64,000 nt of DNA from Escherichia phage vB_EcoM_VR20. Where the stretch lies: the sequence record NC_028894.1; one strand, given 5' to 3'. Below are positions 2,823 through 44,418 of this stretch, piece after piece. The notes beneath the pieces are model-generated. The model was not told the origin of the DNA. It did not search any database and worked only from the letters and a program-made list of their open reading frames with translations. Position numbers and translations under genes: made by a program. How positions within the stretch are numbered: position 1 is the stretch's first letter; each line of letters opens with the position of its first letter.

Positions 2823-2863
2823 TTTATTCTCCAGTGTTTTATTTGGTAACTCAGTATGGAATC

Positions 2864-2893
2864 ATTATGCCTTAAAGCAGGGGGCTTGTATAC
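2864..2893 (-). promoter_or_regulatory. T4-type early promoter (cassette copy A): -35 GTATAC, -10 CATAAT
   Basis: Minus-strand reading GTATAC-18 nt-CATAAT, followed by the conserved leader ACTGAGTTACCAAATAAAACACTGGAGAATAAA and ATG at 2822. Confidence 0.55.
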
Positions 2894-2904
2894 CCCCTTT
2901 TTAA

Positions 2905-3348
2905 TTAAATTTCAAATTCTTTGCGGAAGTTGGAAGCATAAGACTGAACTGATGCTTTGTTGAATCCAAACTCACGCACAATCATATCAATAACAGCTCT
3001 GCGAGCAGCACCGTTAGACATATTAACAGTTCTGAACATATCATAGCATAAATCTTTGTTGCTCATACCGGAGCGTTTAGGTGCCTTACGTTCAGCTTTT
3101 GGTTCAGCTTTAGGAGTAGGTTTAACTTCTGGTTTAACCTGTCCATCATTCAGACCTTTAAAAATTTTACCTGCCAGAGTTGCCAGTTTAGCAGCTTCGC
3201 CACGAGTGATACCAAATACTGCCGGGTTAAATGAAATACCTTCAGCTGTCAGACGTTTGAAGAACATACGTGCTGCGGATTGTGCTTCAGCTTCAGAAGA
3301 GTTGTTTAATGCCAGTTTAACATACTTAACCAGTTTTGAAGTTTTCAT
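2905..3348 (-). CDS. hypothetical early protein with C-terminal module shared with 3801..4226
   Basis: ATG at 3348; C-terminal ...NGAARRAVIDMIVREFGFNKASVQSYASNFRK matches ...NAARRALIDVLVTTHDIKKTVVQSYASNFRK of the neighbouring gene. Confidence 0.6.
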   Translation of the reverse strand: MKTSKLVKYVKLALNNSSEAEAQSAARMFFKRLTAEGISFNPAVFGITRGEAAKLATLAGKIFKGLNDGQVKPEVKPTPKAEPKAERKAPKRSGMSNKDLCYDMFRTVNMSNGAARRAVIDMIVREFGFNKASVQSYASNFRKEFEI

Positions 3349-3390
3349 TTTATTATCCCGTTTGTTTATTTGGTAACTCAGTATGGAATC

Positions 3391-3420
3391 ATTATGCCTT
3401 AGTTAAATTCCAAAGTACAT
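3391..3420 (-). promoter_or_regulatory. T4-type early promoter (cassette copy B)
   Basis: Minus-strand ATGTAC-18 nt-CATAAT; core GGTAACTCAGTATGGAATCATTATGCC (plus 3372..3398) is identical to copy A. Confidence 0.5.
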
Positions 3421-3718: not shown

Positions 3719-3759
3719 TTTATTCTCCAGTGTTTTATTTGTTAACTCAGTATGGGATA

Positions 3760-3789
3760 ATTATACACTATCCCACCTGGAAGTAAAAC
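3760..3789 (-). promoter_or_regulatory. T4-type early promoter (cassette copy C) with -10 inside a hairpin loop
   Basis: Minus-strand GTTTTAC ... GTGTATAAT; the -10 lies in the loop of the 7-bp stem TGGGATA/TATCCCA (plus 3753..3775). Confidence 0.55.
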
Positions 3790-3800
3790 ACTTTTCTCAA

Positions 3801-4226
3801 TTATTTTTGAGCTTTGCGGAAGTTGGATGCATATGACTGAACAACAGTCTTTTTGATATCATGGGTGGTAACCAGAACATCAATCAGAGCGCGACGAGCT
3901 GCATTATCATTCATATCAATTTCTGCAAATGCCTGGAAGCAAATGTCACGAGCATTACCAGATTTGGACTGGATTTTTTCTTCTTTAACTTCTTCAATTG
4001 GGAATTCAATCATTTCAGCTTGGATTAATTCAATGATAGATTCTTTTGACTGTTTGGTGTTTACCTTCAGTTCAGAATTAAGGGACTTGGCGATGGCAAC
4101 AATCTGGGTTGAAGTCAGATGAATAAGTGCATCTTCACGAATGCAGATTTCACATACTTCGTCAGCAACCATTTTGTTGGTGATGCGGGTAACAGAAAAT
4201 GCAGAGGTCAGGGTCAGAAAGTTCAT
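3801..4226 (-). CDS. hypothetical early protein with C-terminal module shared with 2905..3348
   Basis: ATG at 4226 preceded by GGAGAAATAAA leader; the track start at 4307 is GTG lying inside the promoter cassette. Shared C-terminal motif VQSYASNFRK. Confidence 0.6.
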   Translation of the reverse strand: MNFLTLTSAFSVTRITNKMVADEVCEICIREDALIHLTSTQIVAIAKSLNSELKVNTKQSKESIIELIQAEMIEFPIEEVKEEKIQSKSGNARDICFQAFAEIDMNDNAARRALIDVLVTTHDIKKTVVQSYASNFRKAQK

Positions 4227-4277
4227 TTTATTTCTCCAAAGTTTTGTTTGATTCAGTGTGTAACTCAGTATGGAATC

Positions 4278-4307
4278 ATTATGCGCCGGGTCAATTCGGA
4301 TGTACAC
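4278..4307 (-). promoter_or_regulatory. T4-type early promoter (cassette copy D)
   Basis: Minus-strand AAAAGTAGTGTACA-17 nt-CATAAT, followed by the conserved ACTGAGTTAC core. Confidence 0.5.
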
Positions 4308-4343
4308 TACTTTTTGAAGAAAATTTCAAATTTATTCGGGGTA

Positions 4344-39855: not shown

Positions 39856-41415
39856 ATGAAAAAGAATGCATTAGTTCAAAAATGGTCCGCTCTGTTGGAA
39901 AACGAAGCTCTTCCGGAAATCGTTGGTGCTTCTAAACAAGCTATCATCGCTAAAATCTTTGAAAACCAGGAACAAGATATCCTGACCGCTCCAGAATACC
40001 GTGACGAAAAAATCTCCGAAGCATTTGGTTCTTTCCTGACCGAAGCTGAAATCGGTGGTGACCATGGTTATGATGCTACCAATATCGCTGCTGGCCAGAC
40101 CTCTGGTGCAGTAACTCAGATTGGGCCGGCAGTTATGGGTATGGTTCGTCGTGCTATCCCGCATCTGATTGCGTTTGATATTTGTGGCGTACAGCCTCTG
40201 AACAACCCGACTGGCCAGGTATTTGCCCTGCGTGCAGTTTACGGTAAAGACCCTGTCGCTGCTGGTGCTAAAGAAGCTTTCCACCCGATGTATGCTCCGA
40301 ACGCTATGTTCTCCGGTCAGGGCGCCGCTGAAGCTTTCGAACCTCTGGCTGCAAGCAAGCTGCTCACCGTTGGTAAAATTTATTCTCACTTCTTCGAAGC
40401 AACCGGTTCTGCACACTACCAGGCTGTTGAAGCTGTAACCGTTGATGCTGGCGCTACTGATGCTGCTAAACTTGACGCTGAAGTTACCAAACTGCTCGAA
40501 GCTGGTAAGCTGGCAGAAATCGCTGAAGGTATGGCTACCTCTATCGCCGAACTGCAGGAAGGCTTCAACGGTTCTCAGGATAACCCGTGGAACGAAATGG
40601 GCTTCCGCATCGATAAACAAGTTATCGAAGCTAAATCCCGCCAGCTGAAAGCAAGCTACTCTATCGAACTGGCACAGGACCTGCGCGCTGTTCACGGTAT
40701 GGACGCTGATGCCGAATTGAGTGGTATTCTGGCTACCGAAATTATGCTGGAAATCAACCGCGAAGTTATCGATTGGATTAACTACTCCGCACAGGTTGGT
40801 AAATCTGGTATGACCAACACCGTTGGCGCTAAAGCTGGTGTGTTCGACTTCCAGGACCCGATTGATATCCGTGGCGCTCGTTGGGCTGGTGAAAGCTTTA
40901 AAGCTTTACTGTTCCAGATTGACAAAGAAGCTGCTGAAATCGCTCGTCAGACTGGCCGTGGTGCAGGTAACTTCATCATCGCTTCCCGTAACGTAGTTAA
41001 CGTACTGGCTGCAGTTGATACCTCCGTATCTTATGCTGCTCAGGGTCTGGGTAAAGGTTTCAACGTTGACACCACTAAAGCTGTGTTCGCTGGTGTTCTG
41101 GGTGGCAAATACCGTGTATACATCGACCAGTATGCTCGCGCAGATTACTTCACCATCGGTTACAAAGGCGCTAACGAAATGGATGCTGGTATCTACTACG
41201 CACCATATGTTGCACTGACCCCGCTGCGTGGCTCTGACCCGAAAAACTTCCAGCCGGTTATGGGCTTTAAAACCCGTTACGGTATCGGTATTAACCCGTT
41301 CGCTGACCCGACAGCTCAGGCTCCGACCAAGCGTATTCAAAACGGCATGCCGGACATCGTTAACAGCCTCGGCTTGAACGGTTACTTCCGCCGCGTATAT
41401 GTTAAAGGAATTTAA
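39856..41415 (+). CDS. 23: gp23, major capsid protein
   Basis: 519 aa; long stretches recognisable as T4 gp23 (LTEAEIGGDHGY..TNIAAGQTSGAVTQIGPAVMGMVRRAIP; FKTRYGIGINPFA...YFRRVYVKGI). Confidence 0.97.
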   Translation: MKKNALVQKWSALLENEALPEIVGASKQAIIAKIFENQEQDILTAPEYRDEKISEAFGSFLTEAEIGGDHGYDATNIAAGQTSGAVTQIGPAVMGMVRRAIPHLIAFDICGVQPLNNPTGQVFALRAVYGKDPVAAGAKEAFHPMYAPNAMFSGQGAAEAFEPLAASKLLTVGKIYSHFFEATGSAHYQAVEAVTVDAGATDAAKLDAEVTKLLEAGKLAEIAEGMATSIAELQEGFNGSQDNPWNEMGFRIDKQVIEAKSRQLKASYSIELAQDLRAVHGMDADAELSGILATEIMLEINREVIDWINYSAQVGKSGMTNTVGAKAGVFDFQDPIDIRGARWAGESFKALLFQIDKEAAEIARQTGRGAGNFIIASRNVVNVLAAVDTSVSYAAQGLGKGFNVDTTKAVFAGVLGGKYRVYIDQYARADYFTIGYKGANEMDAGIYYAPYVALTPLRGSDPKNFQPVMGFKTRYGIGINPFADPTAQAPTKRIQNGMPDIVNSLGLNGYFRRVYVKGI

Positions 41416-41438
41416 TCTTAGATTAAGTTAAATAAAAA

Positions 41439-41466
41439 GGGACCCTTGAGGTCCCTTTCTTGTTTT
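41439..41466. terminator. bidirectional intrinsic terminator between gene 23 and the inserted minus-strand gene
   Basis: GGGACC-CUUGA-GGUCCC with TTTCTTGTTTT on the plus side and AAAAA upstream (U-run on the minus strand). Confidence 0.75.
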
Positions 41467-41747
41467 CATACCATACCATTTAAATGAACTTCTACCCGGC
41501 GCTTGATGAGGTCTCTGAAATTAACACTGTTCTCTTGAAGTTTCAACCAGGTACCTGATTTGTCTTTGGTGTGAGTAGAATAATTACCATTCCACCAAAA
41601 ATCAGTATCATATGCTAAGTTTTCATATTTTTTAACTAGTTTGTTCAGAGCATTACCATTAACACCATTTGGGTATTTGTTGACCAATGCAACAACTTCA
41701 ATTTCCAGATTTTTAAAGGTATTCCGAAGGAAAGATACTTTGTTCAT
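41466..41747 (-). CDS. small early-type hypothetical protein inserted between genes 23 and 24
   Basis: ATG at 41747 preceded by the conserved leader (GGAG-TCTAAA-ATG) and promoter cassette copy E; the track start 41759 lies inside the leader. Confidence 0.55.
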   Translation of the reverse strand: MNKVSFLRNTFKNLEIEVVALVNKYPNGVNGNALNKLVKKYENLAYDTDFWWNGNYSTHTKDKSGTWLKLQENSVNFRDLIKRRVEVHLNGMV

Positions 41748-41783
41748 TTTAGACTCCATTGTTTGGTAACTCAGTATGAAATC

Positions 41784-41813
41784 ATTATGTCTTATCTTAA
41801 TCAGGTTGTAAAC
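41784..41813 (-). promoter_or_regulatory. T4-type early promoter (cassette copy E): -35 GTTTAC, -10 CATAAT
   Basis: Minus-strand AAAAGTTGTTTACA-17 nt-CATAAT followed by the ACTGAGTTACC core seen in copies A-D. Confidence 0.55.
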
Positions 41814-41819
41814 AACTTT

Positions 41820-41827
41820 TATAAATA
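41820..41827 (+). promoter_or_regulatory. late promoter TATAAATA (gene 24)
   Basis: Exact TATAAATA 27 nt upstream of the gene 24 ATG. Confidence 0.7.
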
Positions 41828-41853: not shown

Positions 41854-43134
41854 ATGGCAAAGATTAACAAATTACTGCGCGAGTCAACTACCACTACCAG
41901 CAACTCCTTGGGCCGCCCGAATCTTGTTGCTTTGACCCGTGCTACAACCAAATTGATTTACCGCGATATCATCGCTGAACAACGTACTAACCAGCCAGTT
42001 GCGGCTCTGTACGGTGTTAAATATCTTACTCCTGATAATGAATTCAGTTTCCAGACTGGTGCTACTTATGGTGGTGAAGTTGGTTCAAAAGACCGTACAA
42101 CTATTCCGGAATTTACAACCCCAACTCAGGCCGTAGCTAAAGGTGGATACATTAAATTCCAGAATATCGTTTATAAAGCTCTGGTTGATAATCCATTTGC
42201 ATCGACCACAGAAACAGTATTATCTGATGTTCTACAGGAAGGTCTTGTTGCATTAACTATTCGTTTAGTTCCTGATGCTGCACACACCGAAAAATTTGAA
42301 GCTGGTGATGTTGAAATTAGTAACGCTGTATTCCAGGTTAATAAATGGAATGCTCCTGTTAAATCCCGTAAATTGAAAACTGCATTAACTGTTGAGCTTG
42401 CTCAGGATATGGAAGCAAATGGCTTTAATGCTCCTGCGTTCCTGGAAGACCTGCTTGCTACTATTATGGCAGATGAAATTAACAAGGATGTTCTTCAGTC
42501 TCTTATTACCGTTTCCAAGCGTTATAAAGTAACTGGCGTTTCTGACAATGGCACCATCGATTTAACATATGATGCAGCTCCAGAAGGTGCACGTAAACTG
42601 TACGAACTGGTTTGCGAAATGAACTCCGAAATTCAGAAAACTACATCTTATTCCGGTACCTTTGTTGTTGCCTCCAGCCGTGTTGCTGCTATGTTGGCTG
42701 GTTCTGGCTGGCTGAAGCATAAACCTGAAGACGAACAGTGGCTTCCTGAAACAGCGTACGGTTATTTGATTAATGGTCTTCCTGTATTCTGTGATGTTAA
42801 CAGTCCATTGGATTATGTAACCGTTGGCGTTAAAGAAAATTACGGTGGAAACGAAGTCGTAGGCTCAATCTTCTATGCTCCTTATACCGAAGGCCTGGAC
42901 TTAGATGATGAAGAACACGTAGGTGCGTTTAAGGTCATTGTGGACCCAGACAGCTTGCAGCCATCTATCTCCCTGATGGTTCGATATGCGCTTTCAGCTA
43001 ACCCTTACACCGTTGCTAAAGACGACAAAGAAGCTCGTATTATCGATGCAACTAATATGGATTTAATGGCCGGCCAGAGCAATATGTCTTATCTGCTCGG
43101 TGTTAAACTTCCGCCAATCATTTATGAGGCGTAA
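41854..43134 (+). CDS. 24: gp24, head vertex protein (copy 1)
   Basis: 426 aa, gp23-fold vertex protein by size and position after gene 23. Confidence 0.9.
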   Translation: MAKINKLLRESTTTTSNSLGRPNLVALTRATTKLIYRDIIAEQRTNQPVAALYGVKYLTPDNEFSFQTGATYGGEVGSKDRTTIPEFTTPTQAVAKGGYIKFQNIVYKALVDNPFASTTETVLSDVLQEGLVALTIRLVPDAAHTEKFEAGDVEISNAVFQVNKWNAPVKSRKLKTALTVELAQDMEANGFNAPAFLEDLLATIMADEINKDVLQSLITVSKRYKVTGVSDNGTIDLTYDAAPEGARKLYELVCEMNSEIQKTTSYSGTFVVASSRVAAMLAGSGWLKHKPEDEQWLPETAYGYLINGLPVFCDVNSPLDYVTVGVKENYGGNEVVGSIFYAPYTEGLDLDDEEHVGAFKVIVDPDSLQPSISLMVRYALSANPYTVAKDDKEARIIDATNMDLMAGQSNMSYLLGVKLPPIIYEA

Positions 43135-44418
43135 ATGCAAAAGATTAACGCACTAATTCACGAATCAACATTAACGGCGGCCAACCAGGTCGCCCGTCCT
43201 AATTTGCTTTCTTATACTCAGGCCACGAATAAACGAATTTTTAAAGCACTCGTGGCCGAACAGAAAACTACTCAGCCAGTTGCAGCGTTGTATGGTGTTC
43301 GTGTTCTGAACCCAGATGATAAAATGACATATCTTGGTGGAGCAACGTTTGCGGGTCAAATTGGTATGTTCGAGCGTAAGAATATTCCAGAATTTACAAA
43401 CAAAGACGAAGCTTATGCAGTCGGCGATATGTTCCAGTTTGAAAGTGTTGTGTTCAAAGTTTTGGAAGCATCACCATTCGCCGGGACTCTTGAAACTGAT
43501 TTGGGTGAAGTTATTTCTGAAGCCATTGCTGCTGGCCATATAAGAATGATGTCGGATGCGGCTTTCACTGATAAATTTGAACAAGGTCATCCTGAAATTG
43601 CTGAAGCCGGTTTCCGTATTGATAAATGGCAGACCGAAGTCAAATCCAGAAAGCTGAAAACTTCTTTAACGGTCGAGCTTGCACAGGACCTGGAAGCAAA
43701 CGGTTTCGATGCAACAGACTTCATTGATAATATTCTCGGTATTCAGATGGCAGAGGAAATTAATAAGGATGTACTGCAATCCCTTATTACTGTCAGTTCT
43801 CGCTTCAAGGTGCAAGGTGTTTCTGAAAAAGGTGTATTGAATCTAACTGACCCGAAATATGATAACGCTCAGGACCGTGCGCGAACCCTGTATTATTATA
43901 TGTGTGAAATGAACTCCGCAGTTCAACGTCAGACTTCGTTTGCTGGTACATATGCAGTCGCTTCTTCCCGGTGTGCAGCTATTTTAGCAGCTTCTGGTTG
44001 GGTTGAGAAAAAGGAAGACCAGGATGAATTAGCCTATGGCGTTCTGAAGAACGGTTTACCACTTTATGCAGATATGAATAGTCCATGTGATTATGTTATT
44101 GTTGGTGTAAATGCTGATATGGGTGAAGGTCAGACGGTCGCATCTTTGTATTATGCGCCTTATACGGAAGGACTTAGTGAAGTTGATGATGAGGGTGATA
44201 CCTCGGTCGGGGAATTCAAGGTTATTGTTGACCCTGAAAGCTTGCAGCCTACTGTTGCGCTATTAGCTCGTTATGCATTGACAGCGAACCCTTATACGGT
44301 TGCGAAAGATGATAAAGAAGCTCGCATTATTGATGGTGCTGATATGGATAAGATGGCCAACCAAAGCCAATTGAGTTCTTATCTTGGTGTTAAACTTCCA
44401 CCACTGGAAAAAGAATAA
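43135..44418 (+). CDS. 24: gp24 paralog, head vertex protein (copy 2)
   Basis: 427 aa; clear similarity to copy 1 along the whole length (RPNL...QPVAALYGV...; C-terminal GVKLPP); starts 1 nt after the copy 1 stop. Confidence 0.85.
   Translation: MQKINALIHESTLTAANQVARPNLLSYTQATNKRIFKALVAEQKTTQPVAALYGVRVLNPDDKMTYLGGATFAGQIGMFERKNIPEFTNKDEAYAVGDMFQFESVVFKVLEASPFAGTLETDLGEVISEAIAAGHIRMMSDAAFTDKFEQGHPEIAEAGFRIDKWQTEVKSRKLKTSLTVELAQDLEANGFDATDFIDNILGIQMAEEINKDVLQSLITVSSRFKVQGVSEKGVLNLTDPKYDNAQDRARTLYYYMCEMNSAVQRQTSFAGTYAVASSRCAAILAASGWVEKKEDQDELAYGVLKNGLPLYADMNSPCDYVIVGVNADMGEGQTVASLYYAPYTEGLSEVDDEGDTSVGEFKVIVDPESLQPTVALLARYALTANPYTVAKDDKEARIIDGADMDKMANQSQLSSYLGVKLPPLEKE

Follow-up and report, generated by a model that had tools for sequence, protein, structure and literature searches.

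A candidate early transcription unit antisense to the late operon in the gap between capsid genes 23 and 24 of a Gaprivervirus

Introduction

Why should a small minus-strand gene lie between two head genes of a late operon that otherwise runs on the plus strand, and is it a stand-in for the homing endonuclease gene that phage T4 carries at the same place? The question arises from Escherichia phage vB_EcoM_VR20 (NC_028894.1), of which a stretch of 64,000 nucleotides, hereafter the window, was analysed. A first-pass annotation of the letters had described a 93-aa ORF with its own early promoter (copy E of a repeated cassette) and a conserved leader, and had proposed that the gap between genes 23 and 24 is an insertion hotspot, occupied in T4 by a homing endonuclease gene and here by a cargo with no recognisable endonuclease motif. 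We find it probable that the locus comprises an autonomous early transcription unit, placed antisense in the Gaprivervirus 23–24 gap, and that this unit is a swappable cassette for a dispensable accessory product.

Layout of the 23–24 gap

Over 550 bases around the locus, the window shares 99.1% identity with Escherichia phage vB_EcoM_VR26 and 98.5% with VR7, and we assign it to a VR7/VR26-like Gaprivervirus of the subfamily Tevenvirinae. The gene order annotated in VR7—gene 21, 22, 23, VR7ORF190c on the minus strand, 24(1), 24(2), and rnlB—is reproduced in the window, where genes 21, 22, 23, 24(1), and 24(2) flanking the ORF all lie on the plus strand. Each element listed in the first-pass annotation was recovered at its position or within a few bases of it (Table 1): the 93-aa minus-strand ORF within the gap of the plus-strand late operon, the early-type promoter with its leader, and, on either side, the two-strand terminator hairpin next to gene 23 and the gene 24 late promoter. 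Promoter, leader, ORF, and hairpin can all be identified in the sequence, giving a self-contained antisense unit of early type.

The two gene 24 paralogues, named 24(1) and 24(2) in VR7, stand in tandem in the window (41854–43134 and 43135–44418), are 57% identical, and have no intergenic space between them. Two copies are also present in JS10, IME08, and the metagenomic contig L011; Mosigvirus G53 and the Tequatroviruses have a single copy.

Table 1. Features of the 23–24 locus and sister copies of the promoter/leader cassette in the window.
Feature	Position	Strand	Basis
Promoter/leader cassette copy in the hyperplastic region; GGGGG...CCCCC stem-loop overlapping the −35 (PeSL-like)	2839..2909	−	
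Promoter/leader cassette copy	3366..3408	−	Motif search
Promoter/leader cassette copy; core motif with 2 mismatches	3735..3801	−	Motif search
Promoter/leader cassette copy; terminator hairpin ~50 nt upstream	4260..4323	−	Motif search
Gene 23, major capsid protein, 519 aa; left flank of the gap	39856..41415	+	ORF list, VR7 annotation (98.5%-identical region)
GC-rich hairpin with a T-run on both strands; predicted intrinsic terminator in two directions	41434..41460	.	Terminator scan, folding
93-aa ORF (stop included in coordinates), 10.9 kDa, pI 9.6; PHROG 6003 / VR7ORF190c family	41466..41747	−	ORF list, PHROG match, dN/dS, AlphaFold2
5′ leader, predicted 30 nt; inferred start site ~41777	41748..41777	−	Sequence, folding
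T4-type early (sigma-70) promoter: −35 GTTTAC (41813..41808), 17-nt spacer, −10 CATAAT (41789..41784)	41784..41813	−	Promoter scan
Gene 24 late promoter TATAAATA, back to back with the early promoter and serving as its AT-rich upstream region	41820..41827	+	Sequence
Gene 24(1), capsid vertex protein; right flank of the gap	41854..43134	+	ORF list, VR7 annotation

A protein-coding gene of an existing family

The translation of the ORF opens MNKVSF from an ATG at 41747, with a Shine-Dalgarno GGAG (41757..41754) 6 nt upstream. An alternative in-frame ATG four codons upstream (41759) would give a protein of 97 aa; because this codon runs into the ribosome site and relatives lack it or have it out of context, the start that gives 93 aa is taken to be the conserved one. 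The product matches the PHROG 6003 profile over its full length (E = 5.3e-49, residues 1–90 on profile positions 1–90 of 90), is 98.9% identical to VR7ORF190c, and belongs to a family that a tblastn search recovered in 236 phage records. The gene is therefore not new: many genomes have it annotated as hypothetical (VR7ORF190c, JS98 ORF173c-like), and it forms PHROG 6003. Literature on the ORF or the 23–24 junction yielded nothing beyond reviews of segD.

Pairwise dN/dS values for the ORF lie at ~0.1–0.3 overall, with 0.15–0.27 within Gaprivervirus, 0.095 for the Dhakavirus pair JS10 and IME08, and 0.13–0.15 between the Mosigvirus-type alleles of G53 and L011, and the reading frame is retained at identities as low as ~30%. 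Together with the structural prediction described below, these values indicate a genuine protein-coding gene of 93 codons under purifying selection. Conversely, the locus might yield no protein, the ORF being an accident within an antisense or non-coding RNA or a spacer, and the matches to sraA and SraG that Rfam gave over the hairpin could be cited for this; they were the only ones and, at 27 bits against a gathering score of 56, were far below threshold. With dN/dS well below 1, a frame kept at 30–40% identity across the 236 records, GGAG at the correct spacing, and a confident fold prediction, a locus without a protein product is barely credible.

A compact basic protein without a known fold relative

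An AlphaFold2 model based on an alignment of 19 sequences (mean pLDDT 93.5, pTM 0.79) predicts a compact helix–helix–beta-hairpin–helix fold, with helices at residues 3–24, 31–48, and 77–89 and the beta-hairpin at 52–61 and 67–71. A BFVD model of a homologue with 34% identity superposes on it with a TM of 0.86–0.91. Basic charge is maintained throughout the family (pI 9.5–9.6), and the 19 aligned members all share M1, K3, F6, an N-G-N that opens helix 2, A45, and Q71.

Searches of Pfam, NCBIfam, and PDB sequences with the 93-aa protein gave zero matches, and a profile search against 1.84 billion representative proteins returned nine, comprising the family itself and artefacts. The family is confined to phages and matches no known family or fold. 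The homology and structure search that the first-pass annotation had suggested was successful in one respect, the assignment to PHROG 6003, and led to no family of known function and no known fold. Among the matches from the large profile search, the two large proteins, P0025 and P0026, are repeat-protein artefacts, and P0023 represents a chimeric contig.

The first-pass annotation had seen no recognisable endonuclease motif in the ORF and had named a decayed mobile endonuclease as one of the outcomes that would overturn its reading. The single point in favour of a degraded Seg-type (GIY-YIG) homing endonuclease is position, as this unit houses segD in T4 and TH15. Against it, BLASTP comparison with SegD gave E values of 20 (TH15) and 3.9 (T4), and a Pfam search with the protein and 18 relatives returned no GIY-YIG or other match for any of these 19 family members. 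Moreover, the predicted helical bundle with a hairpin is not the GIY-YIG alpha/beta fold, purifying selection extends over the full length, and in IME08 an intact segD adjoins an intact ORF. Seg-type endonucleases have ~200–250 aa and a C-terminal DNA-binding domain; the ORF product has 93 aa and one compact domain. Origin as an endonuclease remnant is effectively refuted, and we assign it almost no weight.

Early promoter, leader, and repeated cassette

The promoter upstream of the ORF matched 10 of 12 consensus positions in the promoter scan and can be written in hexamers as TTTACA-N17-CATAAT. Compared with the T4-type early consensus (−35 GTTTAC, 17-nt spacer, −10 TAnnnT), the −35, the spacer, and the AT-rich upstream region agree, whereas the −10 is CATAAT, not TATAAT, and is off consensus at its first base; the same C is found in three of the four sister copies of the cassette. 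The −35 block is kept in all occupied junctions, across four genera.

The 5′ half of the leader and the −10 box just upstream of it form part of a five-copy motif: ATAATGATTYCATACTGAGTTA occurs in the window at 2847, 3374, 3743, 4261, and 41767, always on the minus strand, against a chance expectation of 0 in 100 shuffles. This recurrence, with the GTTTAC/CATAAT promoter itself, bears out the earlier description of an early-type cassette copy with a conserved leader. Folding of the leader revealed no structure (z +1.3), and because the leader is unstructured, the target of cassette conservation seems to be the DNA or primary sequence. At the Gaprivervirus 23–24 junction, the −10 and leader are of the genome's own repeated cassette type, and Dhakavirus and Mosigvirus have a different leader; we read this pattern as local replacement of the Gaprivervirus −10 and leader by the resident cassette type.

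The four other copies drive small early ORFs in the hyperplastic region, at 2.8–4.3 kb. Cassette conservation spans the −10 to the start codon (CATAATGATTCCATACTGAGTTACCAAATAAAACACTGGAGAATAAAATG), and PeSL-like stem-loops are present at two copies. Outside Tevenvirinae, Morganella phage MP1 (1490–1560 of its locus) carries a −10, leader, ribosome site, and ATG that match almost perfectly (44/46 nt) and drive an unrelated hydrophobic ORF of 65 aa. The MP1 −10 lies within a perfect 12-nt inverted repeat, GTAACTCAGTAT...ATACTGAGTTAC, so the conserved leader may be one half of an old palindrome.

Terminator, late promoter, and proposed transcription

The hairpin begins 5 nt past the ORF stop codon and is called by the terminator scan on both strands, with a stable GC-rich stem and a U-run each way (−17.0 kcal/mol on the minus strand and −15.9 kcal/mol on the plus strand; z −3.7 and −3.3). 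A homologous hairpin follows gene 23 at every 23–24 junction examined. In Dhakavirus and Mosigvirus, its minus-strand side is without a good T-run, and bidirectional termination may for this reason be specific to Gaprivervirus. At the opposite end of the unit, the divergent early promoter has its −35 only 6 nt from TATAAATA. The block TATTTATAAA(A/G)nTTGTTTAC, common to all occupied antisense junctions across genera, contains, on opposite strands, the late promoter of gene 24 and the early −35 with its AT-rich upstream region.

From these elements we infer early expression of the ORF. Host sigma-70 RNA polymerase would start at ~41777 in the first minutes of infection and produce a minus-strand transcript of ~350 nt ending at the hairpin; by stopping there, this transcript would spare gene 23 from antisense transcription. 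Later, transcription from gene 23 would use the same hairpin in the opposite direction, and late transcription of gene 24 would proceed from TATAAATA, a sequence that would also provide the early promoter with its AT-rich upstream element. Into such an antisense unit, SegD endonuclease genes would have moved secondarily. Homology with T4 also points to early timing: for the T4 unit, published omics data record segD as an early RNA and a middle protein, the latter detected by mass spectrometry. A 2010 review had found no segD promoter and held segD expression to be probably negligible. Upstream of T4 segD (2733–2824 of the T4 locus), TTTACA-N17-TATTAT is found in a position homologous to the early promoter.

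Occupancy of the gap in related phages

The first-pass annotation had called for the 23–24 junction to be compared across T4-like genomes. The gp23 C-terminus has matches in ~1,900 phage records. Comparison of selected junctions revealed variable cargo between shared anchors, and at least six different occupancy states were found among related phages, in keeping with an insertion hotspot. In the first state, the gap holds the small ORF alone, as in Gaprivervirus (30 records, 90–99% protein identity), in Dhakavirus such as JS10 (~63%), in Mosigvirus such as G53 and ST0 (~38%), and in two contigs from metagenomes, L011 and L013. In VR7, JS10, G53, ST0, IME08, 310Ecol104PP, L011, and L013, the small ORF runs antisense to its neighbours 23 and 24; it is the commonest occupant of the gap in Gaprivervirus, Dhakavirus, and Mosigvirus.

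The second state combines both genes: in IME08, the small ORF is followed after 3 nt by segD on the same strand and in one transcription unit, and matching coordinates indicate the same tandem in AV109, ATK47, F2, and the LF82 phages. IME08-type segD is present in ~38 Dhakavirus records, and in the IME08-type genomes for which both positions are listed, segD lies directly downstream of the small ORF and shares its transcription unit. A third state, segD alone, is that of T4, where the homing endonuclease gene mentioned in the first-pass annotation was confirmed as segD on the minus strand, and of TH15, a Gaprivervirus with a SegD 72% identical to that of T4. In Tequatrovirus 310Ecol104PP, the small ORF persists as a frameshifted pseudogene; genes 23 and 24 of this phage are 96–98% identical to those of T4/RB32, and its gap is of Dhakavirus type.

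The gap is empty in the Gaprivervirus TH57, and also in RB32, Roth68, Moon, and MP1, where it measures 80–90 bp and contains nothing but the hairpin and TATAAATA, the latter missing in MP1. Finally, other cargo is found in Klebsiella phage Matisse of Slopekvirus, with a SegD-like GIY-YIG gene in sense orientation (1820–2458 of the locus), and in the Krischvirus Makalu_002, with two small sense ORFs in a gap of 722 bp (1729–2450 of the locus). The Matisse and Makalu_002 cargoes represent independent colonisations of the 23–24 site.

Contig L011 (ENA ERZ27245996) is 173 kb long and derives from an uncultured T-even phage, with the small ORF at 4001–4273 of the locus. Its capsid genes are nearest to those of Dhakavirus VR5 (88.7% DNA identity), yet its small-ORF allele is of Mosigvirus type. 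In one source, its small protein is named "NADPH-dependent curcumin reductase CurA", an evident mis-annotation.

History of the slot

Identity of gp23 to that of the window falls from VR7 (99%) through JS10 (96%) to G53 (84%), and divergence of the ORF broadly tracks these flanking genes, which suggests broadly vertical descent. Exceptions to this pattern are L011, in which Dhakavirus-like flanks enclose a Mosigvirus-type allele, and 310Ecol104PP, which represents a cross-genus import. Differences in cargo start exactly at two anchors, namely the hairpin at the end of gene 23 and the early/late promoter block; as these anchors are conserved across genera and mark the breakpoints, exchange most likely occurred by homologous recombination within them, and the ORF itself most likely had no role in mobility. 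Outgroups with an empty gap of 80–90 bp imply that the antisense unit was inserted at some point, as the first-pass annotation had held.

The history implied by that annotation, a novel cargo where an endonuclease belongs, does not fit the distribution, in which the small ORF is the more widespread gene and occupies the same site in three genera. A version of it would make the ORF a recent foreign cargo that entered a homing-endonuclease hotspot and took the place that segD has in T4. Variable occupancy with empty outgroups agrees with recent arrival, as do homologues in unrelated phage groups and the composition of the ORF (GC 34.4%, against 41.4% for the window, 49.7% for gene 23, and 43–50% in the flanks). 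Occupation of the site in three genera, with divergence in step with the flanks (VR7 < JS10 < G53), argues otherwise; in addition, the ORF and segD share one operon in IME08-type phages, and, of the phages examined, those with segD only (T4, TH15) are in the minority. We regard recent arrival in the place of segD as unlikely. Given that the small ORF is the occupant found most widely and that segD lies immediately downstream of it, segD is better viewed as an add-on or replacement than as the original tenant. We accordingly read the small ORF as an accessory gene that has long resided in a swappable, insulated slot, with segD as a secondary coloniser; it is the usual tenant of the 23–24 site, not an endonuclease substitute. 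Allele swapping does blur claims about which state of the gap is ancestral.

Within Gaprivervirus, the left flanks of TH57 (empty) and TH15 (segD) are identical. TH57 matches TH15 exactly up to the start of segD, and its gene 24 promoter box is AATAAATA (TH57 2590–2625 and TH15 2450–2620, locus coordinates); TH57 seems to have arisen by deletion from an ancestor that carried segD. Near the end of gene 23, T4, TH15, and TH57 have in common the synonymous codons TTT-AGA-CGT (Phe-Arg-Arg), which read TTC-CGY-CGY in all small-ORF phages and in RB32. The TTT-AGA-CGT codons may mark a SegD co-conversion tract.

Comparison with known systems

The T4 segD locus resembles that of the window in its gap, antisense orientation, and hairpin after gene 23, and in having, at the corresponding position, a sigma-70-like promoter back to back with the late promoter of gene 24. 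It differs in its cargo, a GIY-YIG endonuclease of 223 aa unrelated to the 93-aa protein, in its −35 (ATTTAC), and in an unrelated leader. The Dhakavirus copies, IME08 orf166–segD and JS98 ORF173c, belong to the same family (~63% identity) and share site and orientation, but have another −10 and leader, and many carry segD 3 nt past the stop.

Moron genes of lambdoid phages, known from Hendrix and colleagues, are autonomous promoter–gene–terminator units situated between late genes and are typically expressed from the prophage. The unit in the window is similar in having its own promoter and terminator, in lying between two genes of a late operon, in being dispensable and variably present, and in its deviating composition (GC 34% vs 43–50%). 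Unlike morons, it belongs to a virulent phage, and its predicted activity falls early in the lytic infection.

A third point of comparison is the promoter-early stem-loop (PeSL), a class of regulatory cassettes of T4-type phages that mediate modular shuffling (Arbiol 2010, PMC2839356; Comeau 2014, PMC4122927). The reading of the gap as a swappable, insulated slot agrees with this concept. Recombination between PeSL copies yields excised mini-circles, detected by inverse PCR on infected cells (PMC2839356), and a consensus of TTTACW-N17-TAYWAT was derived from the PST/T4 phage pair (Comeau 2014, PMC4122927). The window's repeated early-promoter module, conserved from the −10 to the start codon, likewise drives small ORFans, is associated with indels between close relatives, and is insulated in transcription by terminator and promoter; the −35 of copy E fits the Comeau consensus. 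In contrast to PeSLs, copy E has CATAAT as its −10. It stands in a conserved structural (head-gene) module outside the hyperplastic regions, with a cargo that differs among the close relatives TH15, TH57, and the window. Its stem-loop is found at the 3′ end of the ORF instead of being joined to the promoter, the upstream neighbour of which is the gene 24 late promoter.

The locus amounts to a natural slot, insulated by promoter and terminator, within an essential late operon. Nothing found here overturns current understanding, and practical value is modest. An insulated slot with at least six occupancy states would nonetheless make a convenient system in which to study accessory-gene swapping by T4-like phages and the colonisation of existing transcription units by free-standing homing endonucleases.

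Possible role of the product

Natural deletion, replacement by segD, and pseudogene alleles in relatives indicate that the gene is dispensable. Outside the T-even phages, rV5-like myoviruses carry homologues within arrays of small early ORFs, and in a siphovirus-like contig the neighbours are GpJ-type tail genes; the ORF is thus not tied to capsid genes. No conserved partner gene was found outside the T-evens; a downstream neighbour is kept only between two related rV5-like loci and is not found at a further locus, L021.

T4 internal proteins are small and basic. The product shares these properties and its gene sits between genes 23 and 24, so that a head-related role, as a packaged internal protein or an assembly factor, might be considered. 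Its antisense orientation and early-type promoter, its absence from TH57, TH15, and RB32 despite near-identical capsid genes, and the rV5-like and siphovirus-like occurrences all speak against such a role, which we judge very unlikely. The internal-protein idea was also rejected on the protein itself, which has no conserved N-terminal (L/I)-x-E protease site and in which residues 3–24 form a core helix.

A functional tie to SegD, with the ORF as helper, immunity factor, or landing-pad gene, is suggested by the IME08-type Dhakaviruses, in which 3 nt separate the ORF stop from the segD ATG. Most carriers, however, are without segD (IME08-type segD in ~38 records vs the ORF in 236), and T4 and TH15 have segD without the ORF, making a tie of this kind highly improbable.

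Possibly, the product acts early as an accessory effector, binding a macromolecule of the host or of a competitor in the service of host takeover or counter-defence. We put this at roughly one chance in three and consider roles in mobility, head assembly, or assistance to SegD less likely. The proposal of a binding protein draws on the small size, early-type signals, conserved basic charge, and conserved polar set of N-G-N and Q71. A broader proposal, more doubtful than probable and offered tentatively, is that the family represents a new fold family of early effectors shared by T-even, rV5-like, and siphovirus-like phages, with the 23–24 gap as a conserved insulated slot through which the gene and SegD endonucleases would move between genera, its early/late promoter block and terminator serving as recombination anchors. 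As a phage-only ORFan predicted to be well folded, with natural nulls available in TH57, TH15, and the 310Ecol104PP pseudogene, the gene is an easy candidate for host-range and anti-defence screens.
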